This document shows, in pieces, positions 879 through 63,728 of a stretch of 64,000 nucleotides of DNA. The DNA comes from Candidatus Magasanikiibacteriota bacterium (lineage in GTDB: Bacteria; Patescibacteriota; Patescibacteriia; Magasanikbacterales; GWA2-37-8), in NCBI GenBank assembly GCA_041665405.1, contig JBAYIZ010000006.1, forward strand, positions 407-64,406, given 5' to 3'. Made by a program: the position numbers and the translations under genes. The notes under the pieces were generated by a model. The model had not been told where the DNA came from and ran no database searches. It saw only the letters and a program-made list of their open reading frames with translations. Numbering within the stretch: position 1 is the stretch's first letter; every line of letters begins with the position of its first letter.

Positions 879-3386
879 TCAACCCCTCTTTATAATTCCT
901 GTCGCCAAACTGGCTACTTTTTTAATTCCCGCCATTAACAACGCCCCACGTGCTTTGGCTACAAAGCCCAACAGTAACGCCGTCAAACCACCAGCTGTAG
1001 TTGTAAAATACATTTTGGATGTTTCGGTTTGTTTATTTTGATCATTCGCTATGCGACTGGCCAGCACTTCATCGCTATAACCAACTACTTTGATATCAGA
1101 CAACGCTCGTGGCAAAATCTGCCAACCGTCTTTACCTTGATTTAATATCCCAATTATTTCCACCTTGTCTCCTTCTTTCAACTCCTGTTTATTAATTTGC
1201 GCTCCTTTTTTGAAATAAACCGCGACCTCGGTCACACCGTCATCTACGTACATCAGCGTGCTTTTTATTTCCGTTATATCACCAGATATTTTTACCAATC
1301 CGCCTAACATTTCCTCTGAGATATCTTCAATTTTCAAATCAATCGGTTCAATAATTTTATTTGTTGATAAAACATTGATTGCATATTTATTTTTTATCCT
1401 GATTCTTTTTACGCCGCCAACGATAGCAGCCTCTCCCCCGACAGAAATGTAATCACCAATTTTTAATTCTGGAAAATCTTTTTTATATTGATAAATTTGA
1501 AAACCGTTTTGATCATCATCGCTAACATAAAAAAATTGTTGACCAAAAGTCTTTGGCTCTACGGTTACTGATCCGCGTACGGACAACCAATTTACTGTCG
1601 TCTTGGCAGAAGTTGTTTTTGTTTCTTTGGTTGCACTTTTTTCTGTTTTTAATACAACTTTATATACTTCTTTATCATTGGGTGATATTAAAATTATTTC
1701 ATCACCATCTTTATCAAAACTAAGATGGTGAACTGCTCTAAAAAATTTTAAAGTTCCTGAAGCCACTATAGTGGTGTTTACTGGTATCTCATATTCCTTG
1801 CCACTTTTATTTTTTATTTTCCAACCAGATATATTTTGTGACTTATCCAAATAATTGGTGAGTTCAATATACTCTTCCATATCTTCTGTACTGGTAGTAT
1901 ACCAACCACTAATTTTCATATTGGCATTAGCCACAGAAAAGTTTGGCCCAACATAAACTTTAAATTCTTTTTTACCAGTTGTACCAGCGCTACTAGAAGC
2001 CGTCACTGAAACCAAATATATTCCTGAAGTGGCAAATGAATGCCCAGATAAATATCCTGTACTACTAAAGTTATCACCAAAATTCCAAAAATAATTTACT
2101 TCGCCACCGCGTGGATCGGCACTACCTTTGACACTAAAGATTCCTATCTCACCCACATCCAAACCATATGGGAAATCATATTTCCAACTAATGTTGACTG
2201 GGTCTTTTGTTTCAACAATATTAGTTTTTGTAGTGGTCGATGTTTTTGTTGTTTTTGTTGTTTTGGTTGATGTGGTTGAAGTAATTATATGTCCGTTGGT
2301 GTTATCATTCGCTGAGCTACCACCACTATTACCGCCAGTATTCAGATTGACGATAGGAACCACTAACTCGTTGGCAGTTCCTAGAGTTATCTTGTTGGTG
2401 ACCGCCCAATCACTATCCGTGCCAGTATCAAAACCGTCTATTTTTCTAATTAACGACTGTCCTTTATCAGTAATAAGTGAGTTGCTTTCACTATAATCAA
2501 TTCTATCCACGACAGCACCATTGTCATCCTTTAATATCACCGAATCACCACCATTATTAAGATAGCCTCCAGTCAACAAATCAACTATTAGCCAGTCATA
2601 ACCACCGATTCTGCCATTTGCTGGTTTACAATTACTATCCGAAGAATCACAAATCAAACCACTAGATAAATCTACTGTACTTGAACTATTATTATATAGC
2701 TCAATCTGTTCGTTTCCCTCAACTGGATCTGATACAATTTCATTTAATTTTATAAAACTCCAATCAAAAATACTGTCAGAAGAGGTAGACATGTCCATAG
2801 TAGAAGACGACTCTGCTGTAGTAGTAGCGGTGGTAGTAGTGAAATTAATATCAACTATTGAATAATTGCTATTTTGTGCACCCACAGTATTGCCAACAGA
2901 ATTTTCCTGCCAATTATCCAAACTATAATTATCTAAAAATGGATTTCTTCTTTCTAATGAAAAATTTGTGGTAGATACATAACTAAACTTTTCTACAAAA
3001 TTATCCATTTCATCCTTTAAACCAATCTCTTCGCTGTTTTCACTCAAACTTGTCCAAGAAGAATCAAATACTGAACCGATAAAATTGGGATGATCTAACA
3101 TAAATATATCGGCGTCCTGACAAATCACCCCATATTCACCAGACAATATCATACTATCAGTTGAAGTCGTCGCCTTGAGATTGTGTTTGGTACTATTTTC
3201 CCAAAATTTCCAATCTTTAATATCAATCGAGTCTGCTCCCCGATTCCAAATCTCAATCCATTCATGAGTGCTCGTTGGATAGGCACCAATCTCATTTATG
3301 ATAATATCCGTATTGGCCGCCAATAATTTTTGCCCAATAAAAAAACTGCCAAATATAAAGACAGCAACCAAAATAAAATATTTCAT
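879..3386 (-). CDS. secreted cell-surface protein with two lamin-tail (LTD) domains and Thr-rich linkers (835 aa)
   Basis: Signal peptide MKYFILVAVFIFGSFFIG. LTD-like motifs IINEIGAYPTSTHEWIEIWN and LNEIVSDPVEGNEQIELYN. Long Thr/Ser tracts and a C-terminal hydrophobic segment. Confidence 0.7.
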   Translation of the reverse strand: MKYFILVAVFIFGSFFIGQKLLAANTDIIINEIGAYPTSTHEWIEIWNRGADSIDIKDWKFWENSTKHNLKATTSTDSMILSGEYGVICQDADIFMLDHPNFIGSVFDSSWTSLSENSEEIGLKDEMDNFVEKFSYVSTTNFSLERRNPFLDNYSLDNWQENSVGNTVGAQNSNYSIVDINFTTTTATTTAESSSTMDMSTSSDSIFDWSFIKLNEIVSDPVEGNEQIELYNNSSSTVDLSSGLICDSSDSNCKPANGRIGGYDWLIVDLLTGGYLNNGGDSVILKDDNGAVVDRIDYSESNSLITDKGQSLIRKIDGFDTGTDSDWAVTNKITLGTANELVVPIVNLNTGGNSGGSSANDNTNGHIITSTTSTKTTKTTKTSTTTKTNIVETKDPVNISWKYDFPYGLDVGEIGIFSVKGSADPRGGEVNYFWNFGDNFSSTGYLSGHSFATSGIYLVSVTASSSAGTTGKKEFKVYVGPNFSVANANMKISGWYTTSTEDMEEYIELTNYLDKSQNISGWKIKNKSGKEYEIPVNTTIVASGTLKFFRAVHHLSFDKDGDEIILISPNDKEVYKVVLKTEKSATKETKTTSAKTTVNWLSVRGSVTVEPKTFGQQFFYVSDDDQNGFQIYQYKKDFPELKIGDYISVGGEAAIVGGVKRIRIKNKYAINVLSTNKIIEPIDLKIEDISEEMLGGLVKISGDITEIKSTLMYVDDGVTEVAVYFKKGAQINKQELKEGDKVEIIGILNQGKDGWQILPRALSDIKVVGYSDEVLASRIANDQNKQTETSKMYFTTTAGGLTALLLGFVAKARGALLMAGIKKVASLATGIIKRG

Positions 3387-3440
3387 ACCCCCAATAAAAA
3401 ATATATTAATGGTTTTAATTATATCAAATTTTAATAAAAA

Positions 3441-3470
3441 AGAAAGCCTCTTATTTAAGAGGCTTTTTCT
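3441..3470. terminator. bidirectional intrinsic terminator (AAAGCCTCTTATTTAAGAGGCTTT, flanked by A-run and T-run)
   Basis: 8-bp GC-containing stem between convergently ending ORFs; A-run upstream and T-run downstream. Confidence 0.6.
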
Positions 3471-3900
3471 TTAATTTTTTTAATATGTCCATCGGTTTTT
3501 CTTTGTGCAAATTTCCCAAATAAACACACTTTATTTTTTTAACAAGCACAGCTGGTAATGTTTTTTTAATATCCAACATGATTTCGGTTGGAGCAAACAA
3601 ATACACCGCACTAAATTTTTGTTCACCAGATATTTGTTTCACAAAGTCTTTAACCAAAACTAGAAAATCGCTATGTTTTGATCTCTTCATTTTTTCTATC
3701 TTTGAGCCAGATTCAAACACCAATGATCCACGTCTGCCAAAGTTTTCACGATCAGAATAATGGCTTTTTAATAAAGTGACCTGCCCCGCTTGCGCAATCT
3801 CTCCTTCGCTGGCGATATAAAAATTTGCCGCTTGAGTACCTGATACTACCAATAAGGCACTTTCATTTATAAACTGATGTAATTGTGCTGAAATTTTCAT
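3451..3900 (-). CDS. hypothetical protein (149 aa)
   Basis: Complete ORF; no confident family assignment from the sequence. Confidence 0.45.
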   Translation of the reverse strand: MKISAQLHQFINESALLVVSGTQAANFYIASEGEIAQAGQVTLLKSHYSDRENFGRRGSLVFESGSKIEKMKRSKHSDFLVLVKDFVKQISGEQKFSAVYLFAPTEIMLDIKKTLPAVLVKKIKCVYLGNLHKEKPMDILKKLKKKPLK

Positions 3901-3921
3901 ATAATCAATTCGAGATATGAA

Positions 3922-4905
3922 TTAATTTAATGGTTCAACTAATGGCATATCAGTATTGGCTGGTTTTGGTTTGTATAATTCCGGATCAATTTTGCGGTTA
4001 AAACAAGTACGTTCTGCTTGATGGCTCCAATTCTGGTTGAAGGAATCAAATGGCTTAGGATAGGCCGGAAGAGTGTTGAAATTATTATCACTCACTGTTA
4101 CAAAGTTAGCACACAACTCAAAATTATATTGATTAATAATGCGATATTCATAATCTAGTTTAGTTTGAGGATCGGTCGGTACCACAAAACCAGAGATGCT
4201 GTCGTTTAGCTGTATTACCTCTCCAGGCAATTCAGACTTTTGAGTCCAATAATTTAAAATCTGATTTTGTATTGTCTGCAAATCCTGTATGCGTTGTTCA
4301 TCAAAGCGGCGATTGCGTTGTTCAAATGGAGTGCCTACAACAAAAAATCCGGCCACTACACTTCCCAGCGCCAAAACCAATAAAATCCCTGCCAAAAGTT
4401 TTGGAACACGAGAAATTAATTCTTTGCGTTTCAAATCCCACATATAATATCCAAAGACTGCTCCCGCTACCAACAACACTATCAAAATCTTTAAAAAGAA
4501 ACGGGTAGTAATCTCACCGCTTAAGAAATTATAAACCAGAATAATCAAATCAACAATTATAGTAACTGCGGAAACAAAAAGTGTAAAATACACTAACCAT
4601 TTTCTTAATTTGAATTCGCGCTTTTCTGGATTAGCATATAAATCTTTGGCCAACAACCAGGCTGTTATCAAATATGCCGGCACCGCAATCAATAAAATAG
4701 ATGACGCCACCCGTACCGACTCGGCAATACCAGTATAATAATAATTCAATGCATCAGGAAATAGCGCATTGATATACTGAAGATACAATGTAATAAAACC
4801 AATAACACTCAAATAAAAAGTCAAAATGTTAAATAGGTGCAAAAACACATCTTTTGGTGTACTGCTCGCTTTTACGACACTCGGTTGCATGTTTGAGTTT
4901 TCCAT
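3922..4905 (-). CDS. integral membrane protein (about 5 TM helices N-terminal, soluble C-terminal domain), hypothetical
   Basis: Multiple hydrophobic helices (FLHLFNILTFYLSVIGFITLYL, ILLIAVPAYLITAWLL, WLVYFTLFVSAVTIIVDLIILVY, etc.). Confidence 0.6.
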   Translation of the reverse strand: MENSNMQPSVVKASSTPKDVFLHLFNILTFYLSVIGFITLYLQYINALFPDALNYYYTGIAESVRVASSILLIAVPAYLITAWLLAKDLYANPEKREFKLRKWLVYFTLFVSAVTIIVDLIILVYNFLSGEITTRFFLKILIVLLVAGAVFGYYMWDLKRKELISRVPKLLAGILLVLALGSVVAGFFVVGTPFEQRNRRFDEQRIQDLQTIQNQILNYWTQKSELPGEVIQLNDSISGFVVPTDPQTKLDYEYRIINQYNFELCANFVTVSDNNFNTLPAYPKPFDSFNQNWSHQAERTCFNRKIDPELYKPKPANTDMPLVEPLN

Positions 4906-9554: not shown

Positions 9555-10769
9555 TTAAAAATTTATAAATTCTTTAAACCTATCTTCAAAAATAGCTTGC
9601 CGTGCCTGACGCATAAGCTCCAACATAAAATGCACATTATGGATGGTAGCCAAACGCAAACCAGTAATTTCTTGTGCTACAAATAAATGGTGTAAATAAG
9701 CGCGAGAATAATTTTTGCAAGTTGAACAAGCGCAGTCTTTACTAATTGGAGAAAAATCTTTGATAAACGCGGAGTTTTTTATATTCAAACGACGTTTCGG
9801 GTCCTCGGCAGTCGTAACAAACAACATACCGTGTCGAGCCAAACGAGTTGGTGCTACACAATCAAACATATCCGCACCACCAGCTACCACTTTGAGCAAA
9901 TCCTCTGGATCCAAACCGACACCCATAGTGTATCGTGGCTTATCTTTTGGTAATAATGGAGTAATCCAATCCAAAATATTTTTGGTAGCTTCCATGTTGT
10001 AGCCAATGCTTTCACCGCCAATTGCGATACCATCAAAATCTAAACTGGCAATATATTTAGCCGATTCTTTGCGCAGATCTTCATGATTGGCACCCTGAAT
10101 AATACCAAATAAAAATTGTTTGTATTCTTTCGGCACTGTCATCCCCGACTTGATCGGGGATCTATCATCACTAGATTCCCGCTTCTGCGGGAATGACAAA
10201 CGCTTATGTTCGTCCACACATCTTTTTGCCCAGCGATGAGTGCGATCCATAGCTTCCTTTGTATATTTATAATCTGCATCATCAGGGGTACATTCATCAA
10301 AAGCCATAATAATATCCGCACCAATCTTGTGTTGGCACAAAGTAGCGGACTCTGGTGTAAAACGATGAGTAGAGCCGTCAATATGAGATTGAAATGTCAC
10401 GCCGTCTTCATCTATTTTTACCAATTTACCTTGATCTTTGGTGTCGCTTTTTTCTTTTTGCAATCCTAATGAAAAAACCTGAAAACCACCAGAATCAGTC
10501 AAAATCGCCCGGTCCCAATTCATAAATTTGTGCAAACCACCAGATTGAGCAACCAAATCTTCACCCGGTCTCAAATGCAAATGATAGTTATTGGCCAAGA
10601 TAATTTTTGGGTCCAAAATAGCTAGGTCGTTTTGATCTAGGGTTTTAACTGTGGCCTGTGTGCCAACTGGCATAAAGACCGGAGTTTCAATATCTCCATG
10701 GTCGGTATGCAAAATACCGGCTCTGGCACCAGTTTTTTTATCTTCGTGGATTAGTTCAAAAAATGACAT
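9555..10769 (-). CDS. tgt: queuine tRNA-ribosyltransferase (tRNA-guanine transglycosylase) carrying an in-frame 57-nt palindromic-element insertion
   Basis: Tgt hallmarks: MSFFELIHEDKKTGARAG, DSGGFQVFSL, and the zinc site CACSTC...H. An extra segment SFPQKRESSDDRSPIKSGM is encoded by the palindromic repeat at 10141-10200. Confidence 0.9.
   Translation of the reverse strand: MSFFELIHEDKKTGARAGILHTDHGDIETPVFMPVGTQATVKTLDQNDLAILDPKIILANNYHLHLRPGEDLVAQSGGLHKFMNWDRAILTDSGGFQVFSLGLQKEKSDTKDQGKLVKIDEDGVTFQSHIDGSTHRFTPESATLCQHKIGADIIMAFDECTPDDADYKYTKEAMDRTHRWAKRCVDEHKRLSFPQKRESSDDRSPIKSGMTVPKEYKQFLFGIIQGANHEDLRKESAKYIASLDFDGIAIGGESIGYNMEATKNILDWITPLLPKDKPRYTMGVGLDPEDLLKVVAGGADMFDCVAPTRLARHGMLFVTTAEDPKRRLNIKNSAFIKDFSPISKDCACSTCKNYSRAYLHHLFVAQEITGLRLATIHNVHFMLELMRQARQAIFEDRFKEFINF
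10141..10200. repeat. palindromic repeat element R1 copy a (two hairpins: ATCCCCGA...TCGGGGAT and ATTCCCGC...GCGGGAATGACA), in-frame inside tgt
   Basis: The GGATTCCCG-loop-CGGGAATGACA family is also at 11917-11945, 39021-39070 and 44707-44733. Local GC is far above the flanking tgt sequence. Confidence 0.7.
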
Positions 10770-11006
10770 ACTAATTATATTTAAGCCAATACTACGCTAT
10801 TTTGCACAAAAAATCAAGACAAACAAAAAACTTCCTATAAGAAGAAGTTTTTTCTATTCTCATGTCGTTAACAACAACAGGAAAATGGATGCCTGCTTTT
10901 TTGTACCGTGAGCGCAGGCGAATCTCACATATTTTCCTTGCGGCGACTAGCCACGCATTAATCACATGCGCAACTTATCAAGCCGAATTGTGTTGGTACG
11001 GCGCGA

Positions 11007-11420
11007 TCAGCGCGCCTTGGGGGCGGCTGCTTCTCGCAGTTCGGCCAGCTTCCTGTCTACCTTTGGGGTGCCGAGGTGTTGCTTGGCCGCGAACACGAGC
11101 TTTGCGCGGGCAGATTGCACCGCCCTGTTCGAAGGACGACGGCCGGGTGGAGTCAAAGCCACCACCGCCTGCAACATTGCCTCCGTCGTCTGCTCGTCAC
11201 CCTGCTTGTACTCCCTGAGCGTGAACAGGACCTTCTCCACCTTCTCGTGGAGATCCCAGGACTCGCGCCAATACGGCCTGTCTTCGCCGGAATGGAACTT
11301 GTCGAGCATGGAGTGAGCCCTCCTCGACCTGAAGTAGCAAAGGACCAACACAAGCATCGACACGATGTTCACCGCAACACTGATACTGTGCCACATAGAA
11401 ATCCCCACTTCCTTCACCAT
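11007..11420 (-). CDS. small GC-rich protein with N-terminal TM helix (137 aa from MVKEV), hypothetical; GC island 1
   Basis: About 60% GC versus about 35% background; high GC3. Start at the internal ATG at 11420. The other overlapping ORFs in this island look like GC artefacts (S/R-rich). Confidence 0.45.
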   Translation of the reverse strand: MVKEVGISMWHSISVAVNIVSMLVLVLCYFRSRRAHSMLDKFHSGEDRPYWRESWDLHEKVEKVLFTLREYKQGDEQTTEAMLQAVVALTPPGRRPSNRAVQSARAKLVFAAKQHLGTPKVDRKLAELREAAAPKAR

Positions 11421-11571
11421 TGCTGACGAAGATGTTAGCTCTCTAGTTGGCGCGGGATGACACATCCACGCCCTTGCGACAAGCAAGCGGCAGCCCAGCT
11501 ACCTCTACTTTTTCCTTACCAAAAGAAAAACTAGCCGTAGCTTGGCCAAAATATATTTCAAAGAACGTGTA

Positions 11572-11678: not shown

Positions 11679-13715
11679 ATGATAAATTTTGAACAAGAAC
11701 TCAACCCGCAACAGCTGGACGTCGTGAAAAATGGCGACGGGCCTTGTTTGGTTTTAGCTGGGGCGGGATCGGGGAAAACTCGCACTATTACTTATCGGGT
11801 TGCCTATTTGTTGGAACAAGGTGTTGGCCCAGAAAATATTTTGTTGGTAACTTTTACCAATCGAGCGGCGAATGAAATGATTGAACGGGTAAGAAATTTG
11901 ATGAGTGGGGATTCCCGTTTGCACGGGAATGACATGCCGTGGTCAGGAACATTTCACCACATTGCCAATAAAATTTTACGACACTACGCACCACATTTAG
12001 GATACAAAAATAATTTTACTGTTTTGGATTCCGACGACAGCCAGGCGTTGATAAAATTGTGTATCAAAGAATTTAAAACCACCGAAAAATTTCCTTCGGC
12101 GAAAGTTGTGGGCGCAATTATTAGTTTTGCTCGTAATTCTCAAAAAAGTATTGAAGAAGTAATTGAAGATAAATTTAATAGCTGGTGGCACCTGTCTAGA
12201 ACTATTGGCGATGTCAGCTCACGATACGAACAAAAGAAAAAAGAATCCAACGCAATGGATTTTGATGATCTACTAATTAATTTTGCATTGTTATTAAACA
12301 CCCCAGCAATTCAAGAAAAGTTTTCCAATCAATTCAAATATATTTTGGTAGATGAGTATCAAGACACCAACAAACTACAAGCGAATATTATTGATAAATT
12401 AGCCAAAATACACCGTAATTTGTTGGTAGTTGGTGATGACGCCCAAAGTATTTATTCTTTCCGTGCGGCTGATATAAAAAATATTTTAAATTTTGAAGAA
12501 AAATATTCTGATGCGAAAATTTTTCGTTTGGAAATAAATTATCGTTCTCACCAAGAAATTTTGTCTTTGGCCAATAATGTTATCGCCAACAATCGTCATC
12601 AATATCCAAAAAAATTAAAAGCAGTAAAAGAAAATGGCATAAAACCAAATTTATATCCAAAAAATGATCAATCCGACGAAGCGAGTTTTATTGTAAAAAA
12701 AATAAATGAACTGATTGAACAAGGAACTCCAGAACACAAAATCGCTGTGCTGTTTCGTGCCGCTCATCATTCTCAAATGCTCGAAATGGAATTAGCCAAA
12801 GCAGGAATCGCTTATGATTATCGTGGCGGTTTGCGATTTTTTGAACGCGCTCACATCAAAGATGTTTTGAGTTATCTCAGAATATTAAATAATTTATCTG
12901 ACACCTCTGCGTGGTTGCGTATTCTCCAACACGAAGAAGGAATCGGACCGTCGGCTGCCAATAAAATTATTTCTGCCGTGCAAAAACTAGAAAAAATTGA
13001 TGACATAAAAAATCTTGGGGAAGTTTTAGGTGGAAAAACCCAAACCGGTTTTAATAATTTCTTAAAAATTTTTAATGCTCTCTTGGAATCGTATATTCCA
13101 GAAAGCAGCCCTGGTGATTTAATCCAATCCATTATCAGTTCGAATTATAGCGACTATTTGGAAGCAGAATTCATAGATAGTGATGACCGAAAAAAGGATT
13201 TGGAACAAATGGCCACCTTTGCCACCAAACACAAAAATTTATCTGATTTTTTGGCCGAATCTAGTTTGCAAGAGTCGTTTGCCCACCCGACATCCAACCA
13301 AACACAGACAAACAACCAAAAAAGGTTGGTGCTTTCCACTATTCATCAGGCCAAAGGACTGGAGTGGGAAGCGGTTTTTATAATCAATGTAGCCAACGAC
13401 GCCTTTCCCAACAGTCGTGCTTTGGCCGAAAGTGAAGGTCTGGAAGAAGAACGCCGTTTGTTTTATGTCGCTATTACTCGTGCCAAAAAACACTTAATTT
13501 TGACTTATCCAATGTCAAATGAGGGTTGGGGCTCCTCGCTGGGCGGTCCAAGCTTGTTTTTGTCTGAAATTAGCCAAGATTTGATTGATGACCACTCATT
13601 ATTATCCTATAAAAGCACTGTTTTTGATAAAAATGAAGAAATTCAATATATTAACGAAGATGAACCAATAAATATCCAACCTGGTAGTTTTTTGCGCAGT
13701 ATTGATGACTTATAA
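11679..13715 (+). CDS. UvrD/PcrA-family ATP-dependent DNA helicase carrying an in-frame palindromic-element insertion
   Basis: Walker A LVLAGAGSGKTRTITYR, helicase motifs through TIHQAKGLEWEAVF. The extra SGDSRLHGNDM near GTFHHIANKIL is encoded by repeat R1 at 11917-11945. Confidence 0.9.
   Translation: MINFEQELNPQQLDVVKNGDGPCLVLAGAGSGKTRTITYRVAYLLEQGVGPENILLVTFTNRAANEMIERVRNLMSGDSRLHGNDMPWSGTFHHIANKILRHYAPHLGYKNNFTVLDSDDSQALIKLCIKEFKTTEKFPSAKVVGAIISFARNSQKSIEEVIEDKFNSWWHLSRTIGDVSSRYEQKKKESNAMDFDDLLINFALLLNTPAIQEKFSNQFKYILVDEYQDTNKLQANIIDKLAKIHRNLLVVGDDAQSIYSFRAADIKNILNFEEKYSDAKIFRLEINYRSHQEILSLANNVIANNRHQYPKKLKAVKENGIKPNLYPKNDQSDEASFIVKKINELIEQGTPEHKIAVLFRAAHHSQMLEMELAKAGIAYDYRGGLRFFERAHIKDVLSYLRILNNLSDTSAWLRILQHEEGIGPSAANKIISAVQKLEKIDDIKNLGEVLGGKTQTGFNNFLKIFNALLESYIPESSPGDLIQSIISSNYSDYLEAEFIDSDDRKKDLEQMATFATKHKNLSDFLAESSLQESFAHPTSNQTQTNNQKRLVLSTIHQAKGLEWEAVFIINVANDAFPNSRALAESEGLEEERRLFYVAITRAKKHLILTYPMSNEGWGSSLGGPSLFLSEISQDLIDDHSLLSYKSTVFDKNEEIQYINEDEPINIQPGSFLRSIDDL
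11917..11945. repeat. palindromic repeat element R1 copy b (GGGATTCCCGTTTGCACGGGAATGACA) in-frame inside uvrD/pcrA
   Basis: Same ATTCCCG...CGGGAATGACA inverted-repeat motif as in tgt and two intergenic sites. Confidence 0.7.
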
Positions 13716-23175: not shown

Positions 23176-23215
23176 ATCCCGACTAAATCGAGATGTTTTA
23201 TTTTTAAAGCGTTTA
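23176..23215 (+). terminator. intrinsic terminator after the REC gene (imperfect 8-bp stem + TTTTATTTTT)
   Basis: CATCCCGA-CTAAA-TCGAGATG followed by a T-run. Confidence 0.45.
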
Positions 23216-23348
23216 TATCACTCGCACAATCTGAAAACAAATTTTATTTTCAAATTGCGCGGCGAGTGACATCTACCGCGTCTGCCCCACCGCCCGCTTG
23301 TAGCGAGTGGGGCTACGATGGCTAGTCTCTACAAATTAGCCCTTCCAT

Positions 23349-23822
23349 CTAGAAGGTGCCCGCCCCCAAGGCGAGTTGGACCTCCCATCCGAAGGAGTTC
23401 TTCTCCACGACGTCCTGTTGCCAGCCGACAGGGGCTTTCAGGAAAACGCGGGCACGCCACAGCTTCATACTGACCATCGGACCAGCCCCGTACAACAGCC
23501 CGTCGTTGCCCTTCTGTCCAGAAAGGACCCCGCCGAAGTTGAACGTGAGCCCATCAACGATCACGTCATAGGTGACGCCGTAGGCCATGCCGTAGCCCGA
23601 TACTTGGGTCGGAACCCAGAACTGGGCGAAGTGGGTCGTGTGACCATCCGGCTGGACCAAGTAGAGGCCCATGCCGATGTCGGTGCCGTCCTCAAACCCG
23701 GCGTGTTGCACGAACAGGCCGGCCCCACCAGTCTCCGGACCAGGACCCTCAGCCAGGGCGACTGAAGGAACTGCGAAAAGGACGACGCTCACGATGACGA
23801 AAAACCACGCGATGTGCTTCAT
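23349..23822 (-). CDS. GC-rich secreted beta-barrel outer-membrane-protein-like protein (OmpW/OMP_b-brl-like), GC island 2
   Basis: About 62% GC. Signal peptide MKHIAWFFVIVSVVLFAVPSVALA. Gly/aromatic-rich alternating strands and a C-terminal aromatic ...LALGAGTF. Start taken at the internal ATG at 23822, where the GC content begins. Confidence 0.5.
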   Translation of the reverse strand: MKHIAWFFVIVSVVLFAVPSVALAEGPGPETGGAGLFVQHAGFEDGTDIGMGLYLVQPDGHTTHFAQFWVPTQVSGYGMAYGVTYDVIVDGLTFNFGGVLSGQKGNDGLLYGAGPMVSMKLWRARVFLKAPVGWQQDVVEKNSFGWEVQLALGAGTF

Positions 23823-23994
23823 GGATTTACTCCGAAAACTAGAGTTCATCGGTACCCAGCCGACACACCACGCGACAATCATTGTCGAGAGGTAAGGGTG
23901 ATTATTTATTCCTATATACATTAGAAATACATAATTTCCTTTACCTCTTTGAGACATTATTTATCCATTATAATTTAAAAAGAACTAACTGAAC

Positions 23995-25155: not shown

Positions 25156-25240
25156 AAAGGGTAACTTTTTCGCTTTTTTTGCCCGCGAGGGCAAAAGGAT
25201 GAGCCTCGGCTCATAACCCGCTCAAAAGTAACCCTTTGCT
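25156..25240 (+). ncRNA. structured repeat R2 copy A: conserved 54-nt core (CGCUUUUUUUGCCCGCGAGGGCAAAAGGAUGAGCCUCGGCUCAUAACCCGCUC) closed by a copy-specific outer stem
   Basis: The core recurs at 38665-38718 and 48363-48415 with compensatory changes in two internal hairpins (GNRA loop GCGA; tetraloop CUCG/CGCG). The outer stem here is GGGUAAC.../...GUAACCC. Confidence 0.55.
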
Positions 25241-25266: not shown

Positions 25267-27342
25267 ATGCCTCGTGAATATTCACTAGACAAAACACGTA
25301 ACATTGGTATTGCAGCTCACATCGACGCTGGTAAAACAACCACCACAGAACGTGTGCTTTTTTATACCGGTAAAAAACACAAAATTGGTGAGGTGCACGA
25401 AGGTGCCGCTGAAATGGACTGGATGGAACAAGAAAAAGAACGTGGTATTACTATTACTTCTGCCGCCACTACTTGTTTCTGGAAAGATCACCGCATCAAC
25501 ATCATCGACACTCCTGGACACGTAGACTTTACCGTAGAAGTAGAGCGCTCTTTGCGCGTGCTTGACGGTGCTGTCGCTGTGTTTGATGGATCTCAAGGTG
25601 TAGAACCACAGTCTGAAACTGTGTGGCACCAAGCTGACAAATATAATGTACCTCGCGTTCCTTTTATTAATAAAATGGATAAGTTGGGTGCAGATTTTTA
25701 TATGTGCATGGACTCAATCCATGAGCGTTTATCAAAAAACGCCTACGCCATTCAGTTACCACTTGGCGCTGATAGTACTTTTGAAGGTTTGATTGATGTG
25801 ATCGAAAGCAAAGCTTACCATTTCGAAGGAAAAAATGGTGAAATTGTTGTTGAGATTCCAATTCCAGCCGACATGGTAGAAAAAGTAAAAGAATATCGCA
25901 CAAAGTTGGTAGAAAAAGTTTCAGAGGCTAGTGACGAATTGATGGAAAAGTATTTGAATGGTCAAGAACTATCTGTCGACGAAATCAAAAAAGCTATCCG
26001 CACTTTAACTTTGAAAAATTTATTGTACCCAGTTATCTGTGGTTCTGCTTTGGCAAACATCGGCGTCCAATTTATGTTGGATGCAGTTGTAAGTTATTTG
26101 CCAGCCCCAACAGATTTGCCTCCAACCAAAGGTATTAATCCTGACACTGATGCTGAAGAAGTTCGCAATCCATCTGATGACGAGCCTTTCTCCGCTTTGG
26201 CTTTCAAGATCATGACCGATCCTTTTGTTGGTAAGTTGGTTTTCTTCCGCGTATACTCAGGACATGTTTCTGCTGGCAGTTATTTGCACAACGCTACAAC
26301 TGGCGAACGCAGTCGTTTGGGTCGCATTGTTCGTATGCATGCCAATCACCGTGAAGATGTGACTGACGTTTACTCTGGTGAAATTGCAGCTGCCATCGGT
26401 CTCAAGGATGTCACTACTGGCGATACTCTTTGTGACGAAGAACATCCAATCGTCTTAGAAAAAATTATCTTCCCAGAACCAGTTATTTCTGTGGCTATCG
26501 AACCAAAAACAAAACAGGACCAAGAGCGTATTGGTATGGCTATGCAGAAATTGGCTGAAGAAGACCCAACCTTCCGCATCAAGACTGATGAAGAAACTTT
26601 GCAAACCATTATTTCCGGCATGGGCGAGTTGCATTTGGACATTATCGTGGATCGCATGAAACGCGAGTTCAAGGTAGAAGCCAATGTTGGTGCCCCTCAG
26701 GTTGCCTACAAAGAAACTATCCGCACTACTGCCGAAGCTGAAGGAAAATACATCAAACAGTCTGGTGGTAAGGGTCAATTTGGCCATTGTTATCTCACTG
26801 TTGAGCCCCAAGAAGCTGGCAAAGGATTCGAGTTTGTCGATGAAATCAAAGGCGGAACAATTCCTCGTGAATTTATCCCTGCCATTGAAAAAGGTGTTAA
26901 AGAATCCCTAACTCGCGGTATTCAAGCTGGTTACCCGGTAGTAGACATCAAAGTAACTGTTACTGATGGCTCATACCATGAGGTGGATTCCTCTGAAATG
27001 GCTTTCAAAATGGCCGGATCGATGGCTTTCCAGACAGCTTGTAAAAAGGCCAACCCGGTGATTATGGAGCCTATTATGAAAGTCGAGGTAGTTACCCCAG
27101 AACAATATATGGGTGACTGCATCGGCGACTTAAACAGTAAACGTGGCCAAATACAAGAAATGTTTGACCGTGGCCAGATGAAGGTTGTGAAGGCAATGGT
27201 GCCTCTTGCGTCCATGTTTGGCTATGTCACCTCTTTGCGCTCTATGTCACAAGGTCGCGCTAGTTCCTCTATGGAATTCGATCACTATGCAGATGTTCCA
27301 GGTAATGTGGCTCAAAACATTGTCGCTGGAAAACAGAAATAA
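25267..27342 (+). CDS. fusA: elongation factor G
   Basis: G1 [18 protein letters not shown]; 691 aa. Confidence 0.95.
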
Positions 27343-38202: not shown

Positions 38203-38231
38203 AACCCCCGATTGAATCGGGGTTTTTATTT
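38203..38231 (+). terminator. intrinsic terminator after rpmH (AAACCCCCGATTGAATCGGGGGTTTTT)
   Basis: 8-bp GC stem plus T-run. Confidence 0.7.
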
Positions 38232-38641: not shown

Positions 38642-38743
38642 TTTAAAAAACTTTTATTTTATTTCGCTTTTTTTGCCCGCGAGGGCAAAAGGATGAAGCC
38701 GCGGCTTCATAACCCGCTCAATTAAAATAAAAGTTTTTTAAAT
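38640..38743 (+). ncRNA. structured repeat R2 copy B filling the whole rnpA-yidD spacer
   Basis: Same core as 25171-25224, with a compensatory extra A-U pair in hairpin 2 (AUGAAGC-CGCG-GCUUCAU). It sits inside a 22-bp AT-rich outer stem (AATTTAAAAAACTTTTATTTTA.../...TAAAATAAAAGTTTTTTAAATT) that reaches the yidD start. Confidence 0.55.
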
Positions 38744-39020: not shown

Positions 39021-39070
39021 TTGTCATTCCCGTGAAAGCTTGTCCCCACGAAAGTGGGGACGGGAATCCG
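39021..39070. repeat. palindromic repeat element R1 copy c (nested hairpins GTCATTCCCG...CGGGAATCC around GTCCCCAC-GAAA-GTGGGGAC)
   Basis: Fills the convergent yidD/yggU spacer; same ATTCCCG/CGGGAAT arms as the other copies. Confidence 0.65.
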
Positions 39071-44157: not shown

Positions 44158-44330
44158 ATATGTATGATTAAAAATACTTCGCAATATTATCTTAAAACAC
44201 AAAAAAAGTCAATTTTATGGCTGTGGTATTGCTTTTTTGAGGATGTTGGTGTATATTTTTTAAATCCACCCGTGGCCAGGTCGTGTTATATAGACACAGC
44301 CTCGGCGACTATAGCGAAAGAGGGGAAACC

Positions 44331-44529
44331 ATGGCGCGAGCCAAACCGGCAACGGACACGTGTTGAGGTACATGTTCGATTCCAGTTCAACCTCAGGCCG
44401 CAACAACGGGCTGAGGAGGCCACGCAGAAGGCCAAGAAGTGGCAGAGGGACAACCCGGGCTGGGGCTGTGATCCCAACCCCACGACGATCGGCAACGGCT
44501 ACGCTACCTTCAGGGCTCGTCGCACCTGA
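44331..44529 (+). pseudogene. GC island 3: small GC-rich ORF apparently frameshifted (SD+ATG at 44331 gives 11 aa; the high-GC3 frame continues to TGA 44527-44529)
   Basis: Good RBS AGAGGGG-6-ATG. The long ORF with GC3 bias (EVHVRFQFNLRPQQRAEEATQKAKKWQRDNPGWGCDPNPTTIGNGYATF...) is in the +1 frame relative to that ATG and has no start codon of its own. Confidence 0.25.
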
Positions 44530-44667
44530 CGACGATCAACCTCTTCGACGCACACCCCCAGTCGAGCACAAGTTGCTCCTGGGGGCGGGGCTTAGATGAA
44601 ATTATCCTTCCTGTCCTAAGTAGAAAAAATATTTTCTTTTTAGGACAAGGATAATTTCTTAAAATAA

Positions 44668-44706: not shown

Positions 44707-44733
44707 GGATTCCCGCTTTCGCGGGAATGACAA
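44707..44733. repeat. palindromic repeat element R1 copy d (GGATTCCCGCTTTCGCGGGAATGACAA)
   Basis: Lies between the hppA stop and its terminator. It is translated in a spurious ORF as IPAFAGMTT. Confidence 0.65.
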
Positions 44734-44752: not shown

Positions 44753-46747
44753 TTATTTTAGTAATAACCCTACAATTAACAGTGCTACGATATTAGCCAC
44801 CTTTATCATCGGATTGATAGATGGACCAGCAGTGTCTTTATATGGATCACCAACAGTGTCACCAGTGACAGCGGCTTGATGTGCAAAAGAACCCTTGCCA
44901 CCATAATTTCCAAGTTCAATATATTTTTTTGCATTATCCCAAGCGGCACCACCAGTAGTCATAGAAATAGCTACGAAAATACCAGTGACAATTGTTCCTA
45001 CCAACAAACCACCCAACGCTTCGATACCCAAGAAGTAACCAACCAAAATTGGCACGACCACAGGAATCAAAGATGGCACAATCATTTGTCCGATAGCTCC
45101 TTTGGTAACAATATCTACAGCTTTGCCGTAGTCTGGTTTTCCAGTGCCCTCCATAATTCCAGCGATTTCACGGAACTGACGACGAACTTCTTCAACTACT
45201 TGTCCGGCAACTTTACCAACAGATTCCATCAACATAGCACCAAACAAATATGGCAACAAACCACCAATAAATAATCCAACTAAAACTTTTGGATCATTAA
45301 TTAAAAATTGATATGAATCAGGAAGCTTGTGAGTGAAGTCAGCAAACAAAACTAGTGAAGCCAAACCAGCAGAGGCAATCGCATATCCTTTGGTCACAGC
45401 TTTGGTAGTATTACCAACTGCGTCTAGAGGATCAGTAACATTGCGTACGTCTTGAGACAGCTCAGCCATCTCTGCGATACCACCAGCATTATCAGTGATA
45501 GGTCCAAAAGCATCAATAGTAACGATAATACCAGCCAAAGACAACATACTAACTGCGGCCACAGCCACGCCGTACAAACCAGCTAAATAGTGAGAACCCA
45601 TCATGGCGGCCATAATCAAAAGTACTGGCAAAGCAGTGGACTTCATGGAAACAGCCAAACCAGCAATCACATTGGTACCATGACCAGTAGTACTAGCTTT
45701 GGCAATATGTTGAACTGGAGAATATTTTGTTGAAGTATAATAATCTGTCAAAGCTACCATCAAAGCAGTGAGTACCAAACCGATAATAGCACAATAAAAA
45801 ATGTTCATTACACTATATCCAACCAAACCACTCATCAACCATTTTGTAGCTGGATAAAAACCAATCAAAGCAATTACGCCAGCGGCAATTAATCCCTTGT
45901 ACAATGCTTTCATTACATTTTTGTCTTCACCTAATCGGATGAAGAATGTTCCTAATATAGAAGCGACGATAGAAATACCACCAAGCACAATTGGATAAAC
46001 TGCAACTTTATCATTGCTTGGGAAAAGTAATCCGCCCAAAATCATTGCGGCGATAGTAGTGATAGCATAAGTTTCAAAAAGATCGGCGGCCATACCAGCA
46101 CAGTCACCAACATTGTCCCCGACGTTGTCGGCAATCACAGCTGGATTGCGTGGATCATCTTCTGGAATTCCTTTTTCTACTTTGCCAACCAAGTCTGCAC
46201 CCACATCAGCGGCTTTGGTAAAGATACCACCACCGATACGAGCAAAAATTGAAATTAAACTTCCGCCAAAACCTAAACCAATCAAAGCGGACAAATCATG
46301 TGTTAAATAATAAAAACCAGAAACACCGAGTAGCCCCAAACCAGAAACTAACAAGCCAGTAACCGAACCACCTTTTACAGCCACATCAAGCGCTGGTTTG
46401 AAACCTTTTTTTGCGGCCTCAGCAGTACGCACGTTGGCTTTGACCGAAACCAACATACCAATAGTACCTGCCAAGCCAGAAAATACTGCACCCACTACGA
46501 AACCAAAAGCAGTAATCCAATCGATAGATAGTCCTAATAAAATAAAAACGATTACAGCGACATAAGCGATTGTCTTGTATTGTCGAGAAAGATAAGCTTT
46601 GGCACCATCTTGGATGGCACGAGCGATTGCCTGCATGCGATCATCGCCAGCTGGCTGTTTGAGAACCCAACGAATAAGCACACCGCCGTAAATGATGGCG
46701 ATAAGTGCTGGTAAAATTCCGCCTAACACTATAATCATAAGTGTCAA
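44753..46747 (-). CDS. hppA: membrane-bound proton/sodium-translocating pyrophosphatase
   Basis: [19 protein letters not shown] and [21 protein letters not shown] signatures; 16 TM helices; 664 aa. Confidence 0.9.
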
Positions 46748-48341: not shown

Positions 48342-48443
48342 CATCCCAGACAATGACTTTTTCGCTTTTTTCGACCGCGAGGTCGAAAGGATGAGCCTCG
48401 GCTCATAACCCGCTCAAAAGTAATTGTCTGGGATGTTTTTTTG
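48342..48443 (+). ncRNA. structured repeat R2 copy C immediately 3' of tRNA-Cys; outer stem + T7 acts as an intrinsic terminator
   Basis: Core 48363-48415 has compensatory hairpin-1 changes (CGACC-GCGA-GGUCG versus GCCC-GCGA-GGGC). It lies inside a 16-bp stem CATCCCAGACAATGAC/GTAATTGTCTGGGATG followed by TTTTTTT. Confidence 0.55.
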
Positions 48444-48453
48444 TACCATAAAA

Positions 48454-48482
48454 TTGACTTTGTGTTTTTTATCAAGTAAAAT
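48454..48482 (+). promoter_or_regulatory. promoter TTGACT-17-TAAAAT reading into GC island 4
   Basis: AT-rich host-type promoter; the GC-rich leader begins directly after the -10. Confidence 0.45.
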
Positions 48483-48576
48483 ATTTTTGTGTCCCAAACG
48501 ACCGACGGTTCGCCGTTCGGTCACAACGACCACTTGCACCGCTCATCGGTGGTGGTCTCGAAAAGGAGAGAGAGCC

Positions 48577-48798
48577 ATGCGTGTGCTTCCCTCGATCCTG
48601 AACCAGAGCCGGAGACGGAGCGACAATTCCGCCGATTGCGGGCAGGTCGCGAGCTCCGAGGCCGACTTCATCCACAGGCAACTGCTCGAGCATGGCTTCT
48701 GCTCGGACATGAAGGAGGGCGCCGTCGGCACCGCCAACATGGTCGGCATCGTCTGTTCGACCGCGGCCGGCCGCGGAGCAGTAGTCCTCCTGGTGTAG
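48577..48798 (+). CDS. small GC-rich protein (73 aa), hypothetical; GC island 4
   Basis: Strong SD AAAGGAGAGAG-5-ATG. About 65% GC with high GC3. Sequence MRVLPSILNQSRRRSDNSADCGQVASSEADFIHRQLLEHGFCSDMKEGAVGTANMVGIVCSTAAGRGAVVLLV. The longer overlapping track ORFs are GC artefacts. Confidence 0.5.
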   Translation: MRVLPSILNQSRRRSDNSADCGQVASSEADFIHRQLLEHGFCSDMKEGAVGTANMVGIVCSTAAGRGAVVLLV

Positions 48799-48827
48799 GG
48801 CTCAGCTTCGTACGAGACAACCAGTGC

Positions 48828-48881
48828 GGCCGGACCGGGAGCTCCTTCGGGGGTTTCTGGTCCGGCCGTCGTTTCCTTTTT
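48828..48881 (+). terminator. GC-rich intrinsic terminator of island 4 (GGCCGGACC...GGTCCGGCC + T-run)
   Basis: 9-bp GC stem enclosing a second hairpin, followed by TTTCCTTTTTATT. Confidence 0.6.
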
Positions 48882-48962
48882 ATTATATTTAATACTCAAA
48901 GCGGGTATTTTTTTATTGCTCAAAAAAGGGTTTGCGTGTAAAATAAGAACGAATAATATTTT

Positions 48963-61127: not shown

Positions 61128-61162
61128 ACAAAAAACCGATTGCAGATTGCAGTCGGTTTTTT
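61128..61162 (+). terminator. conserved TrmB-paralog terminator AAAAAACCGATTGCAGATTGCAGTCGGTTTTTT
   Basis: Same family as 56227 and 63041. Confidence 0.65.
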
Positions 61163-61308
61163 GATAACTTCTTGAGCTCAACAAGATGTTGGAGTGAATG
61201 AGCGGTCACTACCAGCCGCGTGACTTTTTGTTTTACCGGTAGTCACAAACCGGATGATCCCAGACCCCTCATCAGCGGACCATTGAATTGTCCTGAAACT
61301 TTGCACCT

Positions 61309-61707
61309 CTACGCCTGTTCGCGACAGGGCAGGCATTCGTAGCCCACCCAAAGGCCGTTGGCAAAGGTGAAGTCGAAGTCCCAGCGGTTGTCACCACCGT
61401 ACCAGCAGAGGCTGGCAGTGTATTTGAATCCATTGGGGGCGAGAAGAGTGGTGCCAGTGAGCACGATCTTCTTCTTACGCATTTTCATCGGAATCTGGTC
61501 TTGGTGGTCAAGCAGTTGCTGGCCGTCACGCACTCCAAGGACGCCATTCCGACGACGTGCGCGTTCGCGCAATTCGGAGCCCTTGATGCATTCCTCGCCA
61601 CGCTTGAGGCACGACTCGATCCGGAGCTTGTTGATGTGAAGATCTGCAATTGGATCACAGTCTTCCACAACCTTAAACTCCACCCTGTTCCAAACGAATG
61701 TATTCAC
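61309..61707 (-). CDS. GC-rich Cys-rich small protein (132 aa, GTG start), hypothetical; GC island 5
   Basis: SD AAGGAGGTGA-4-GTG. About 58% GC. Contains CxxC-like pairs (ESCLKRGEEC, ECLPCRE). Divergent from the TrmB paralog at 61919. Confidence 0.45.
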   Translation of the reverse strand: MNTFVWNRVEFKVVEDCDPIADLHINKLRIESCLKRGEECIKGSELRERARRRNGVLGVRDGQQLLDHQDQIPMKMRKKKIVLTGTTLLAPNGFKYTASLCWYGGDNRWDFDFTFANGLWVGYECLPCREQA

Positions 61708-61918
61708 CTTTCACCTCCTTGCGGTTCTGACAGGTTGGTTGCTCTGAAGAGAGCAATTGTTGTTAACAACTCAATAAAATATCATATTTCACTTTATTGG
61801 TCAATCATTTTATCCCTAAAATTAGCAAAAAAATCAGATAAAAGCTGACAAAATTATGTTGGGGGTTGACTTTTTGGCTAAATTCATATAAAATAATCAT
61901 CATAAATAATATGACAAT

Positions 61919-63076: not shown

Positions 63077-63168
63077 TTACTTCTTGAACCAAAATGATTT
63101 AGTTCGAAAAGTAGCTGCGCGTCTTTTTGACCGGGACGCGCAACCGGGTGAGAGGGTGGAACCGGACG

Positions 63169-63660
63169 TCACAGGAATGCGATTCCCAGTGACGGCTGGA
63201 ACAGCAACGAGTAATCGCCGCCATCCAGGGTCTTCGCCAGTCCAAATGCCATGGACAGCGACAGACCGTTTCCGATTCCGTAGGCCAGGCCGGTGCCCAG
63301 ACCAACCAAGTCGGAAGACGGCTTGCCGCCGTAACCGACATTGCGCTGGTAGAGCACGCTGGCCTGGGTGGACCAACGATCAGTCAGTCCCAGCGACACA
63401 CCTGCAGAGAGGCGTGGGCTGGGCTTGCAACTGTCGTTGGGGGTGGCCAGCCCGATTCCGCCCGCGATGGACACCTTGTTGGAGACCTTCTCCGACAGCG
63501 AGATGTCGTAGCGGGTGGAGGCCGAGGCGGGGGTGAGCCCGTCCTTCAGGAGGACGACGTAGCCCTCCCGGATGTTGAAGACCGGGGTCAGGGCGCTGGC
63601 CGAAGCCGAGACACCGCTCAGAACCACGGCCACCAGGACGATCAGGGTGGAGATCTTCAT
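63169..63660 (-). CDS. GC-rich secreted beta-barrel OMP-like protein (163 aa); GC island 6
   Basis: Signal peptide MKISTLIVLVAVVLSGVSASASA, Gly-rich amphipathic strands, C-terminal ...LGIAFL aromatic terminus; SD GAGGTG. About 62% GC. Confidence 0.5.
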   Translation of the reverse strand: MKISTLIVLVAVVLSGVSASASALTPVFNIREGYVVLLKDGLTPASASTRYDISLSEKVSNKVSIAGGIGLATPNDSCKPSPRLSAGVSLGLTDRWSTQASVLYQRNVGYGGKPSSDLVGLGTGLAYGIGNGLSLSMAFGLAKTLDGGDYSLLFQPSLGIAFL

Positions 63661-63728
63661 GGGACACCTCTGCAGACCAGAAGGCCTGCCATCTGCATTA
63701 GTCAGTCAGGTTGCATTTGCGAACCCAT

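Follow-up and report, generated by a model that had tools for sequence, protein, structure and literature searches.

A CGTC-type double hairpin carried in frame by the tgt gene of a Magasanikbacteria-like Patescibacteria genome

How can a GC-rich palindrome stand in the middle of a housekeeping gene without breaking its reading frame, and where does such a piece of DNA come from? This question is raised by the tgt gene, which encodes a queuine/tRNA-guanine transglycosylase (Tgt), in a stretch of 64,000 nucleotides of contig JBAYIZ010000006.1 (assembly GCA_041665405.1) from a Candidatus Magasanikiibacteriota bacterium. The whole of this stretch is called the window below. A preliminary description of the window had reported a GC-rich double hairpin in frame in tgt and had likened it to the Rickettsia palindromic elements (RPEs). 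The sequence and the read-through of the open reading frame (ORF) confirmed the double hairpin. We think it very probable that the element is a non-autonomous doublet of repetitive extragenic palindromes (REPs) of the CGTC-tagged type, that is, a CGTC-1 unit and a CGTC-2-like unit in inverted orientation with their tetranucleotide tags outward, and that it was inserted into the tgt gene of a Magasanikbacteria-like member of the Patescibacteria.

The element is 62 nt long and consists of two GC-rich hairpins, which we call unit A and unit B. Its coordinates are listed in Table 1 together with those of the other features. On the plus strand the order of its parts is TGTC ATCCCCGA cttga TCGGGGAT ctatcatcactag ATTCCCGC ttct GCGGGAAT GACA. 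That is, the coding strand reads TGTC-ATTCCCGC-AGAA-GCGGGAAT-CTA, followed by the spacer and by TGTC-ATCCCCGA-CTTGA-TCGGGGAT-CTA in reverse complement. Both 8-bp stems are perfect. The preliminary description had placed the element correctly, but its limits fell 4 nt short of the tagged element on the left. When a stretch of 76 nt was folded as single-stranded DNA, the energy was -17.8 kcal/mol (z = -4.9), and none of 200 shuffled sequences folded as well. In the predicted fold, pairing of the tags TGTCAT and ATGACA closes a three-way structure.

Table 1. Positions of the tgt gene, of the parts of its double hairpin, and of the other CGTC-1 units in the window.
Feature	Position	Strand	Structure and context
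tgt, queuine/tRNA-guanine transglycosylase, 404 aa	9555..10769	-	host of the element; ORF intact, in frame
Whole heterodimer, two CGTC-type REP hairpins	10137..10198	.	encodes (L)SFPQKRESSDDRSPIKSGMT on the minus strand
Unit B	10137..10161	+	CGTC-2-like; TGTC tag, stem ATCCCCGA/TCGGGGAT 8 bp, loop CTTGA 5 nt, tail CTA
Spacer	10162..10174	.	CTATCATCACTAG, 13 nt; ends complementary (CTA...TAG)
Unit A	10175..10198	-	CGTC-1; TGTC tag, stem ATTCCCGC/GCGGGAAT 8 bp, loop AGAA 4 nt, tail CTA
CGTC-1 single unit	11911..11934	-	TGTC ATTCCCGT GCAA ACGGGAAT; in frame in uvrD/pcrA-like helicase gene
CGTC-1 unit	39022..39067	+	TGTC ATTCCCGT ... ACGGGAAT; intergenic; nested hairpin GTCCCCAC GAAA GTGGGGAC in loop
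CGTC-1 single unit	44709..44732	-	TGTC ATTCCCGC GAAA GCGGGAAT; intergenic

In the window, the pattern TTCCCG-N(2-14)-CGGGAA occurs 3 times against 0.01 expected, and the CGGGAATGACA arm, with at most one mismatch, 5 times against 0.97 expected. The pattern ATCCCCGA-N5-TCGGGGAT has one exact match and one with 2 mismatches, against 0.00 expected. Only units with perfect stems were counted as units; a scan that allowed one mismatch was not discriminating (5 found where 1.4 were expected, and up to 7 in the shuffled sequences). The preliminary description had seen the arms of the palindrome at three more sites, and all three were recovered. The window thus holds five units at four sites, and further copies lie in five contigs derived from relatives. 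An Rfam scan around the tgt element gave only matches at chance level, and an Rfam scan of the whole window gave nothing at gathering score except two tRNAs. One sub-threshold match, to FtrB (Francisella small RNA B), covers 10111-10216 on the minus strand (E = 0.03; 24 bits, the gathering score being 66); a similar double-hairpin shape may be all that it reflects.

To which family do these units belong? The CGTC-tagged REPs were defined by Di Nocera, De Gregorio and Rocco (2013, BMC Genomics 14:522; PMC3733652). According to that study, these REPs have an unpaired CGTC tag, often TGTC or CCTC, a stem whose length is 8 bp in families 1 and 2 and 9 bp in families 3 and 4, with A and T complementary at the first two positions, a loop of 4 nt in family 1 and of 5 nt in families 2-4, and a short unpaired tail with the consensus CCA. 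They frequently form dimers, and heterodimers occur in CGTC-2. In the window, all five units begin with TGTC, and the stems ATTCCCGC, ATTCCCGT and ATCCCCGA are perfect, 8 bp long and start with AT. The ATTCCCG-type units have loops of 4 nt (AGAA, GCAA and GAAA) and the ATCCCCGA unit has a loop of 5 nt (CTTGA), the exception being the copy at 39022 with its nested hairpin. The tails are CTA, CTA, CCC, CCG and CCT; that is, only the first C is constant, whereas wider samples have CCA.

The encoded peptides point to the same family. In-frame intragenic copies of CGTC REPs are known, with dimers encoding 20-30 aa, and a table in the same study lists the intragenic CGTC-1 peptides SFLRKQES...DSRFRGND, VIPAKAGI, DSRLRGND and CHSRESGDP of R. 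conorii (PMC3733652). In the window, SFPQKRES is encoded in tgt and DSRLHGND in a uvrD-like gene, and these match the SF.RK.ES and DSRFRGND types. The study also equates CGTC-1 with dRS3 of Neisseria and with RPE-6 of R. conorii, and CGTC-4 with RPE-4 (PMC3733652). Judged by their sequences, the window units belong to the CGTC-tagged REPs, as CGTC-1 and CGTC-2-like units. The likeness to RPEs that had been proposed for the element is supported in this form, because the units fit the CGTC REP definition and CGTC-1 is equated with RPE-6, with the same peptides.

Both units of the doublet are widespread. The CGTC-1 core, GTCATTCCCG-N4-8-CGGGAATC, was found at no fewer than 120 loci in species-representative genomes of many phyla. 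Among the matches listed, the hosts included Bacteroidota, Alpha-, Beta-, Gamma- and Deltaproteobacteria, Dehalococcoidia, Planctomycetes, Nitrospirales, Saccharibacteria, Paceibacteria and Neisseria lactamica. The 173 units from these loci had C (110) or T (57) before GTC and the tail CCA, and inverted pairs of the core had their tags outward in 23 cases, against 3. The type of unit B, TGTCATCCCCGA-N3-7-TCGGGGAT, was found at a minimum of 120 metagenome loci. Among the matches listed for this type, the median GC of the loci was 45.5%, the commonest loops were CCTGA and CTTGA, the tail was CCA in 74 of 126, and an inverted partner was present for 53 of the 126 copies. The partner was CGTC-1 (ATTCCCG(C/T)) in 34 of these 53 and the same type in only 2, and the spacers in these 34 other dimers were 4-42 nt long. 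Since the copies of unit B were partnered mostly by CGTC-1, the tgt element is one copy of a recurrent heterodimer.

The heterodimer also lies in frame elsewhere. On metagenome contigs it was found within ORFs for FtsZ, phosphoglycerate kinase (PGK), Mur ligase and ribosomal protein L1; a heterodimer in a Mur ligase gene (L160), TGTCATTCCCGCGAAAGCGGGAATC-TA-GATCCCCGATCAAGTCGGGGATGACA, encodes SFPRKRESRSPIKSGMT. Copies of unit B were in frame in MurT, leucyl-tRNA synthetase (LeuRS), glucose-6-phosphate isomerase (PGI) and a glycosyltransferase. Among the listed matches at loci below 45% GC, 12 of 61 units of the unit-B type fell within ORFs that were 200 aa or longer. A search with an exact 22-mer spanning the tgt spacer had no match in the metagenome contig collection, a weak negative, as the collection is incomplete (contig L247, described below, exists).

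We then consider the host gene itself. Homologs of the window Tgt bear the PF01702 domain (E down to 1e-244), and the protein is full-length and aligns to the Zymomonas mobilis TGT structures (E = 3e-96). The columns D92, D303, C346, C348, C351 and H377, which we take to be those of the catalytic Asp residues and the Zn ligands of the Z. mobilis enzyme, are invariant in the Tgt alignment, and the gene therefore looks functional as far as its sequence tells. The ORF translates through the element as ...RWAKRCVDEHKRLSFPQKRESSDDRSPIKSGMTVPKEYKQFLFGIIQG... (in a longer stretch, KRLSFPQKRESSDDRSPIKSGMTVPKE).

The segment between the conserved blocks RTHxWA and LFGIIQG is 38 aa long in the window Tgt; among the 120 nearest homologs, 74 have one of 19 aa. 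The closest insert-free ortholog (P0001, on contig L001) has 94% amino acid identity with the window Tgt; its loop is 19 aa shorter and reads EHNKNTSYHGYKQF at the insert site. In a neighbour-joining tree the two proteins are sisters with 99.5% bootstrap. This comparison of sequences indicates that the segment in the window Tgt is an insert and not an ancestral loop.

In an AlphaFold2 model of the window Tgt (mean predicted local distance difference test score, pLDDT, 82), residues 195-213 are predicted as coil with pLDDT below 50, between helix 167-192 and strand 219-224. The extra residues align to a gap in the Z. mobilis TGT. In TIM barrels, such helix-to-strand loops are on the face opposite the active site. 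Going by the model, the position of the insert is a tolerated loop, and the earlier expectation that the extra residues map to a loop agrees with it, as they fall in this predicted disordered loop.

Could the element simply be a variable Tgt loop that is palindromic by chance, with no mobile element involved, or an artefact of the assembly? The length of this loop does range widely in the Tgt family, from 14 to 60 aa. However, each of the two arms matches a repeat family for which public genomes and metagenomes contain no fewer than 120 loci, the palindrome is not confined to tgt, with four further units in the window against about 0.01 expected, and the sister ortholog has no such segment. 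In addition, an independent contig of the Joint Genome Institute (JGI; L247), with 98.7% nucleotide identity over 1333 bp, carries the identical 62-nt element, and an assembly artefact is therefore excluded. We regard this explanation as already refuted and assign it hardly any probability. Insertion of a REP doublet is the explanation that we pursue below.

One of the three other sites in the window is also intragenic. The helicase gene of the uvrD/pcrA type (11679-13715, plus strand, assigned by Pfam) carries its copy between helicase motifs Ia and Ib, at a position where the loop of the PcrA structure is shorter by 5 aa. The same site is likewise occupied in L001, by an identical unit, and in L003, where the helicase is 81% identical. 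In L003 the unit is ATTCCCGC TTTC GCGGGAAT and encodes DSRFRGND, whereas the window has the stem ATTCCCGT/ACGGGAAT; the stems differ by a compensatory change of C:G to T:A. L001 comes from an organism with the uvrD copy and no tgt copy; the uvrD copy is thus the older of the two.

The other two copies are intergenic. The copy at 39022 begins directly after the stop codon of a yidD-like gene, between convergent genes. A convergent gene for a 664-aa membrane protein (44753-46747), which reads as a putative proton-pumping pyrophosphatase, has its 3' end 20 nt away from the copy at 44709, and this copy sits just after a terminator-like hairpin. A hairpin at 38204-38224, the match with 2 mismatches mentioned above, was considered as a further member and rejected: it lacks the TGTC tag and, with a T-run behind it, is an ordinary hairpin of the terminator-like kind. 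The short basic ORF before it reads as a putative ribosomal protein L34. Outside the window, a perfect CGTC-1 unit, TGTC ATTCCCGC GAAA GCGGGAAT, was observed at the end of contig L126 (3-26, minus strand), inside a called gene of 473 aa. It is a candidate intragenic copy, and it hints that REPs may break assemblies.

How could the doublet have entered tgt and persisted there? A model in which a hairpin and its tag are recognised on single-stranded DNA has been proposed for the GTAG REPs with their REP-associated tyrosine transposases (RAYTs) and for the ends of the insertion sequences (IS) of the IS200/IS605 type. By analogy, a trans-acting enzyme would recognise the hairpin and the (C/T)GTC tag on single-stranded DNA and would move or copy the doublet. 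Movement as single-stranded DNA would explain why a target-site duplication is missing. Selection would then spare only copies in tolerant loops. Persistence would be permitted by a net length change that is a multiple of three and by a landing site in a helix-to-strand loop of the TIM barrel, where many lineages tolerate extra residues. Of the six reading frames of the CGTC-1 unit, five are open, the frame being closed only where the tag reads as TGA, and most in-phase insertions therefore survive translation. The outcome, as the model of the protein suggests, would be a Tgt with about 19 extra hydrophilic and probably disordered residues that need no function.

Several observations weigh against such a transposition of a neutral passenger. 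The first concerns the mobilising gene. For the CGTC REPs, a dedicated transposase is not known (PMC3733652). When all ORFs of at least 120 aa from 120 of the loci with CGTC-1 units were clustered in search of such a gene, no family was enriched; the largest clusters across loci were ABC transporters, short-chain dehydrogenases and sigma-54 activators, with 6-8 loci each, which is background. A tblastn search of the window with two RAYT sequences gave nothing below E = 1.6. The second concerns the insertion itself. The preliminary description had spoken of a palindrome inserted with the frame kept. The insert stands, as the loop is 19 aa longer than in P0001, but the insertion was not clean: in comparison with P0001, 8 codons (AAT AAA AAT ACT TCC TAT CAC GGC) are replaced by 27, and the flanks have therefore been remodelled too. 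The old loop has left no recognisable remnant, and no target-site duplication was found at tgt.

The third concerns the scatter of inserts. REP-derived inserts of this loop occur in three Tgt clades (the window Tgt, P0003/4 and P0005/6), each of which has insert-free relatives, and the six insert-bearing Tgt proteins were monophyletic in 0.5% of the bootstraps; that is, the carriers are polyphyletic. The scattered inserts nevertheless share some flanking bases, such as ATGACAGTGCC. A simple one-off transposition fails to explain scattered inserts with common flanks. Descent of the inserts in the window and P0003-6 from a single event was also considered, and it faces both the polyphyly of the carriers and the shortness of the flank likeness.

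The same data can be read as homologous recombination or gene conversion from a REP-bearing tgt allele, that is, as a homing-like spread and not as de novo transposition. This would suit the polyphyly of the carriers and the pairing of the window Tgt with the insert-free P0001. It would also suit the flanks, because the inserts of L124 and L126 have ATGACAGTGCC in common with the window, those of L125 and L126 have TTGTC in common on the 5' side, and the ancestral NTxYHG codons are absent from all insert-bearing alleles compared. However, the common flank reaches just 5-6 nt beyond the tag, and the inner parts differ, L124-126 having a single degenerate hairpin and the window a perfect heterodimer. 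Moreover, about 27 of the 120 Tgt homologs have other, unrelated palindrome-like inserts in this loop, whose start points differ by a few codons, and such varying starts fit a loop that was hit independently, with selection as the filter. The scatter could be explained either by alleles that recombined or by one spot that was hit repeatedly. We consider it unlikely that recombination or conversion is the right account of the window copy, and continue to favour insertion of a REP doublet.

The last of these observations concerns the uvrD copy, whose hairpin stays perfect through the compensatory change. This could mean that the structure is under selection and that the element is not purely neutral; alternatively, the changed pair could come from re-copying of a family member with the same variant stem, which is present at 39022. 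A further explanation is therefore to be weighed, namely that the hairpins are kept as a cis-acting mRNA or DNA element, of which the peptide is a by-product. Possible roles are an RNase III or stability site, a pause site of transcription or translation, and a recombination or protein-binding site. In agreement with such a role, three lineages, with protein identity as low as 81%, keep the uvrD copy at one site, both tgt stems are perfect over 8 bp in an element that folds with z = -4.9 as a whole, and the intergenic copies lie no more than about 20 nt from convergent 3' ends, a placement that was taken as a sign of action as an RNA element (PMC3733652). On the other hand, the tgt copy is missing from the sister lineage and from most homologs and is therefore dispensable for tgt, re-copying of the T:A variant stem could mimic compensation without selection, and no Rfam family was at or near threshold. 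We think it quite unlikely that a cis-acting role accounts for the element, and we retain the non-autonomous REP doublet as its explanation.

Further inserts were seen when Tgt proteins were compared across Patescibacteria. Three or four Tgt loops, following reference residues about 103-108, 190-194, 303 and 332, are the sites of clustered inserts of 6-40 aa (P0026-P0117). Many of these inserts have peptides typical of translated GC-rich palindromes (VILSETKDP, VIPAKAGIQ..DSRLHGND, SFANAQDD), and one protein (P0054) has inserts in three loops simultaneously. The tgt gene of L003 (10001-11278) has an extra 24 nt, encoding TEFTLSGAEG, within an older degenerate REP of the loop seen in L124. In L237 (about 2941-4827), as in the window copy at 39022, the loop of a CGTC-1 unit encloses a second hairpin; further palindromes seem to land preferentially in REP loops. 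The annotated Tgt of L003 (P0005; GCA_036172155.1, 10001-10060) starts 20 codons upstream of the conserved MSFFEL, and these extra codons read through a CGTC-1 unit (MLFIKKKTDSRFRGNNRKIF). The start is probably miscalled, and the REP probably intergenic, just upstream of tgt.

What do these results mean? The family is known and so is its behaviour, as in-frame decoration of housekeeping proteins was described in 2000-2013; the element is not a new kind of element. New are the Patescibacteria as a host group, tgt as a repeatedly hit gene, and the CGTC-1/CGTC-2-like heterodimer as a recurrent intragenic unit. CGTC REPs have been reported from five phyla, the Candidate Phyla Radiation (CPR) not being among them (PMC3733652). 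A full-text literature search found no description of REPs, MITEs (transposable elements of the miniature inverted-repeat type) or palindromic inserts in CPR or Patescibacteria. In-frame REP/RPE insertions in essential genes are now extended to the CPR. Unexplained insertions in proteins and rRNA are a recognised oddity of the CPR. Many of the length variants of CPR proteins, and many of their odd peptides of low complexity (VIPAKAGIQ, DSRFRGND, SFPRKRES, SPIKSGMT), find a simple explanation in REP-derived peptides, and this explanation is of use in annotation, in the calling of start codons and in alignment. Furthermore, nearly the same 24-nt hairpin occurs in Neisseria, Rickettsia, Dehalococcoidia, Bacteroidota and Patescibacteria, and it has a heterodimer partner that it prefers; this makes it more pressing to ask what propagates the CGTC REPs.

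We also offer, as a tentative thought that may well prove wrong, a wider generalisation: housekeeping proteins of Patescibacteria may be widely decorated by in-frame CGTC REP doublets that hit a few permissive loops repeatedly. Tgt has at least three hot spots of insertion, and about a fifth of the nearest homologs have an insert in the loop used in the window. Given the scattered alleles, it is a possibility that recombination or a homing-like process carries doublets from one genome to a related one. CPR genomes have around a thousand genes and, to our knowledge, apparently no RAYT. If the generalisation is true, a comparison of REP-rich with REP-free CPR genomes could expose the enzyme or host pathway that propagates CGTC REPs.

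Two other features of the window are recorded here. A motif of about 55 nt, TTTCGCTTTTTTTGCCCGCGAGGGCAAAAGGATGAGCCTCGGCTCATAACCCGCTCAA, occurs three times, always on the plus strand (25168-25225, 38662-38721 and 48360-48417). Its core gave 3 matches against 0.01 expected, and an Rfam match was not found. The motif contains two small hairpins with compensatory stems (GCCC/GGGC against GACC/GGTC; GAGCC/GGCTC against GAAGCC/GGCTTC) and lies 40-70 nt upstream of a 691-aa ORF at 25267, which is elongation factor G (EF-G) by synteny with L003, of the yidD-like ORF at 38745 and of a GC-rich ORF at 48489. The motif could be a leader, a small RNA or a promoter-associated element. In addition, there are six GC-rich islands (10850-11560, 23200-23990, 44300-44660, 48420-48960, 61150-61720 and 63080-63720), 0.4-0.8 kb long, with 53-61% GC against mostly 33-43% elsewhere and with ORFs of 120-200 aa. 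A Pfam scan of these ORFs, in which a transposase was sought, gave no matches, and blastn and tblastx comparison of the islands with each other found no relationship. One island lies between tgt and uvrD, where relatives have other small genes (AbiEii in L003). The islands may represent small genes gained by horizontal transfer, or elements of an unknown kind.

Finally, we compare the window element with known systems. MITEs have terminal inverted repeats of 15-30 bp, a target-site duplication and a related autonomous IS. The ends of the window element are inverted (TGTCAT(T/C)CCCG), but there is no flanking direct repeat, either at the tgt copy or at 10 other heterodimer copies, and no related transposase was found. 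Short GC-rich hairpins, single or double, that AT-rich genomes tolerate in frame in their genes are also represented by the GC clusters and double-hairpin elements of mitochondria and by the small dispersed repeats of cyanobacteria. QMITE1 of Coxiella and cases of RPEs have been reviewed (PMC10969869). The mitochondrial clusters, the cyanobacterial repeats and the Coxiella QMITEs have no sequence relationship to the window element and live in other hosts. REP doublets known as REPINs, built from GTAG REPs, resemble it more in form: they are inverted doublets that can fold as one, with an unpaired tetranucleotide tag and no target-site duplication. The REPIN/RAYT system also has a RAYT gene, for a Y1 HUH transposase, with such doublets on either side, and no RAYT-like gene was found in the window. 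A further difference lies in the tag, which is TGTC in the window (family (C/T)GTC) and not GTAG.

The likeness to dRS3 of Neisseria extends to the sequence. The dRS3 pattern is a 20-bp repeat, ATTCCC-N8-GGGAAT (PMC3898611), and unit A (ATTCCCGCAGAAGCGGGAAT) as well as the units at 11911 and 44709 conform to it. Copies in N. lactamica read CGTCATTCCCGCGCAGGCGGGAATCCAG, with the same core as TGTCATTCCCGCAGAAGCGGGAATCTAG in the window. In contrast, dRS3 is present in about 700 copies per genome, in intergenic arrays (Neisseria intergenic mosaic elements, NIME) with RS elements and as integration sites of Nf filamentous prophages, whereas the window copies are few, dispersed, partly intragenic, and single or doublet, and no arrays were found in the window.

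Among the RPEs, the classical RPE-1 is about 100-150 bp long with a consensus and an encoded peptide of its own, and is a separate, longer type of insertion (PMC3733652); by this description it is set apart from the window element, whose 62 nt comprise two units of 24-25 nt. RPE-6, the CGTC-1 of R. conorii, is much closer. In both cases palindromic repeats are inserted, with the frame preserved, into housekeeping genes of a small-genome, host-dependent bacterium, and both encode the same peptides of the SF.RK.ES and DSRFRGND types, although the host phylum differs. This link is drawn from the statement in PMC3733652 and the peptides listed there.

The CGTC REPs as a whole are the group in which the window copies find their place. 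There are differences in detail: the window tails (CTA, CCC, CCT, CCG) depart from the consensus CCA, the tgt spacer of 13 nt is shorter than the usual 20-100 nt, and the published host list, which includes many repair genes such as the UvrD/REP helicases and also RNA-modification genes (PMC3733652), does not contain tgt, which is a host here. As in the family, where inverted dimers are frequent and heterodimers are typical of CGTC-2, the tgt copy is an inverted heterodimer, and the units of the window have a short tail. The tag, the stem and the loop are alike, and so are the in-frame intragenic copies, the intergenic copies near convergent 3' ends and the use of UvrD/REP helicase and tRNA-modification genes as hosts.

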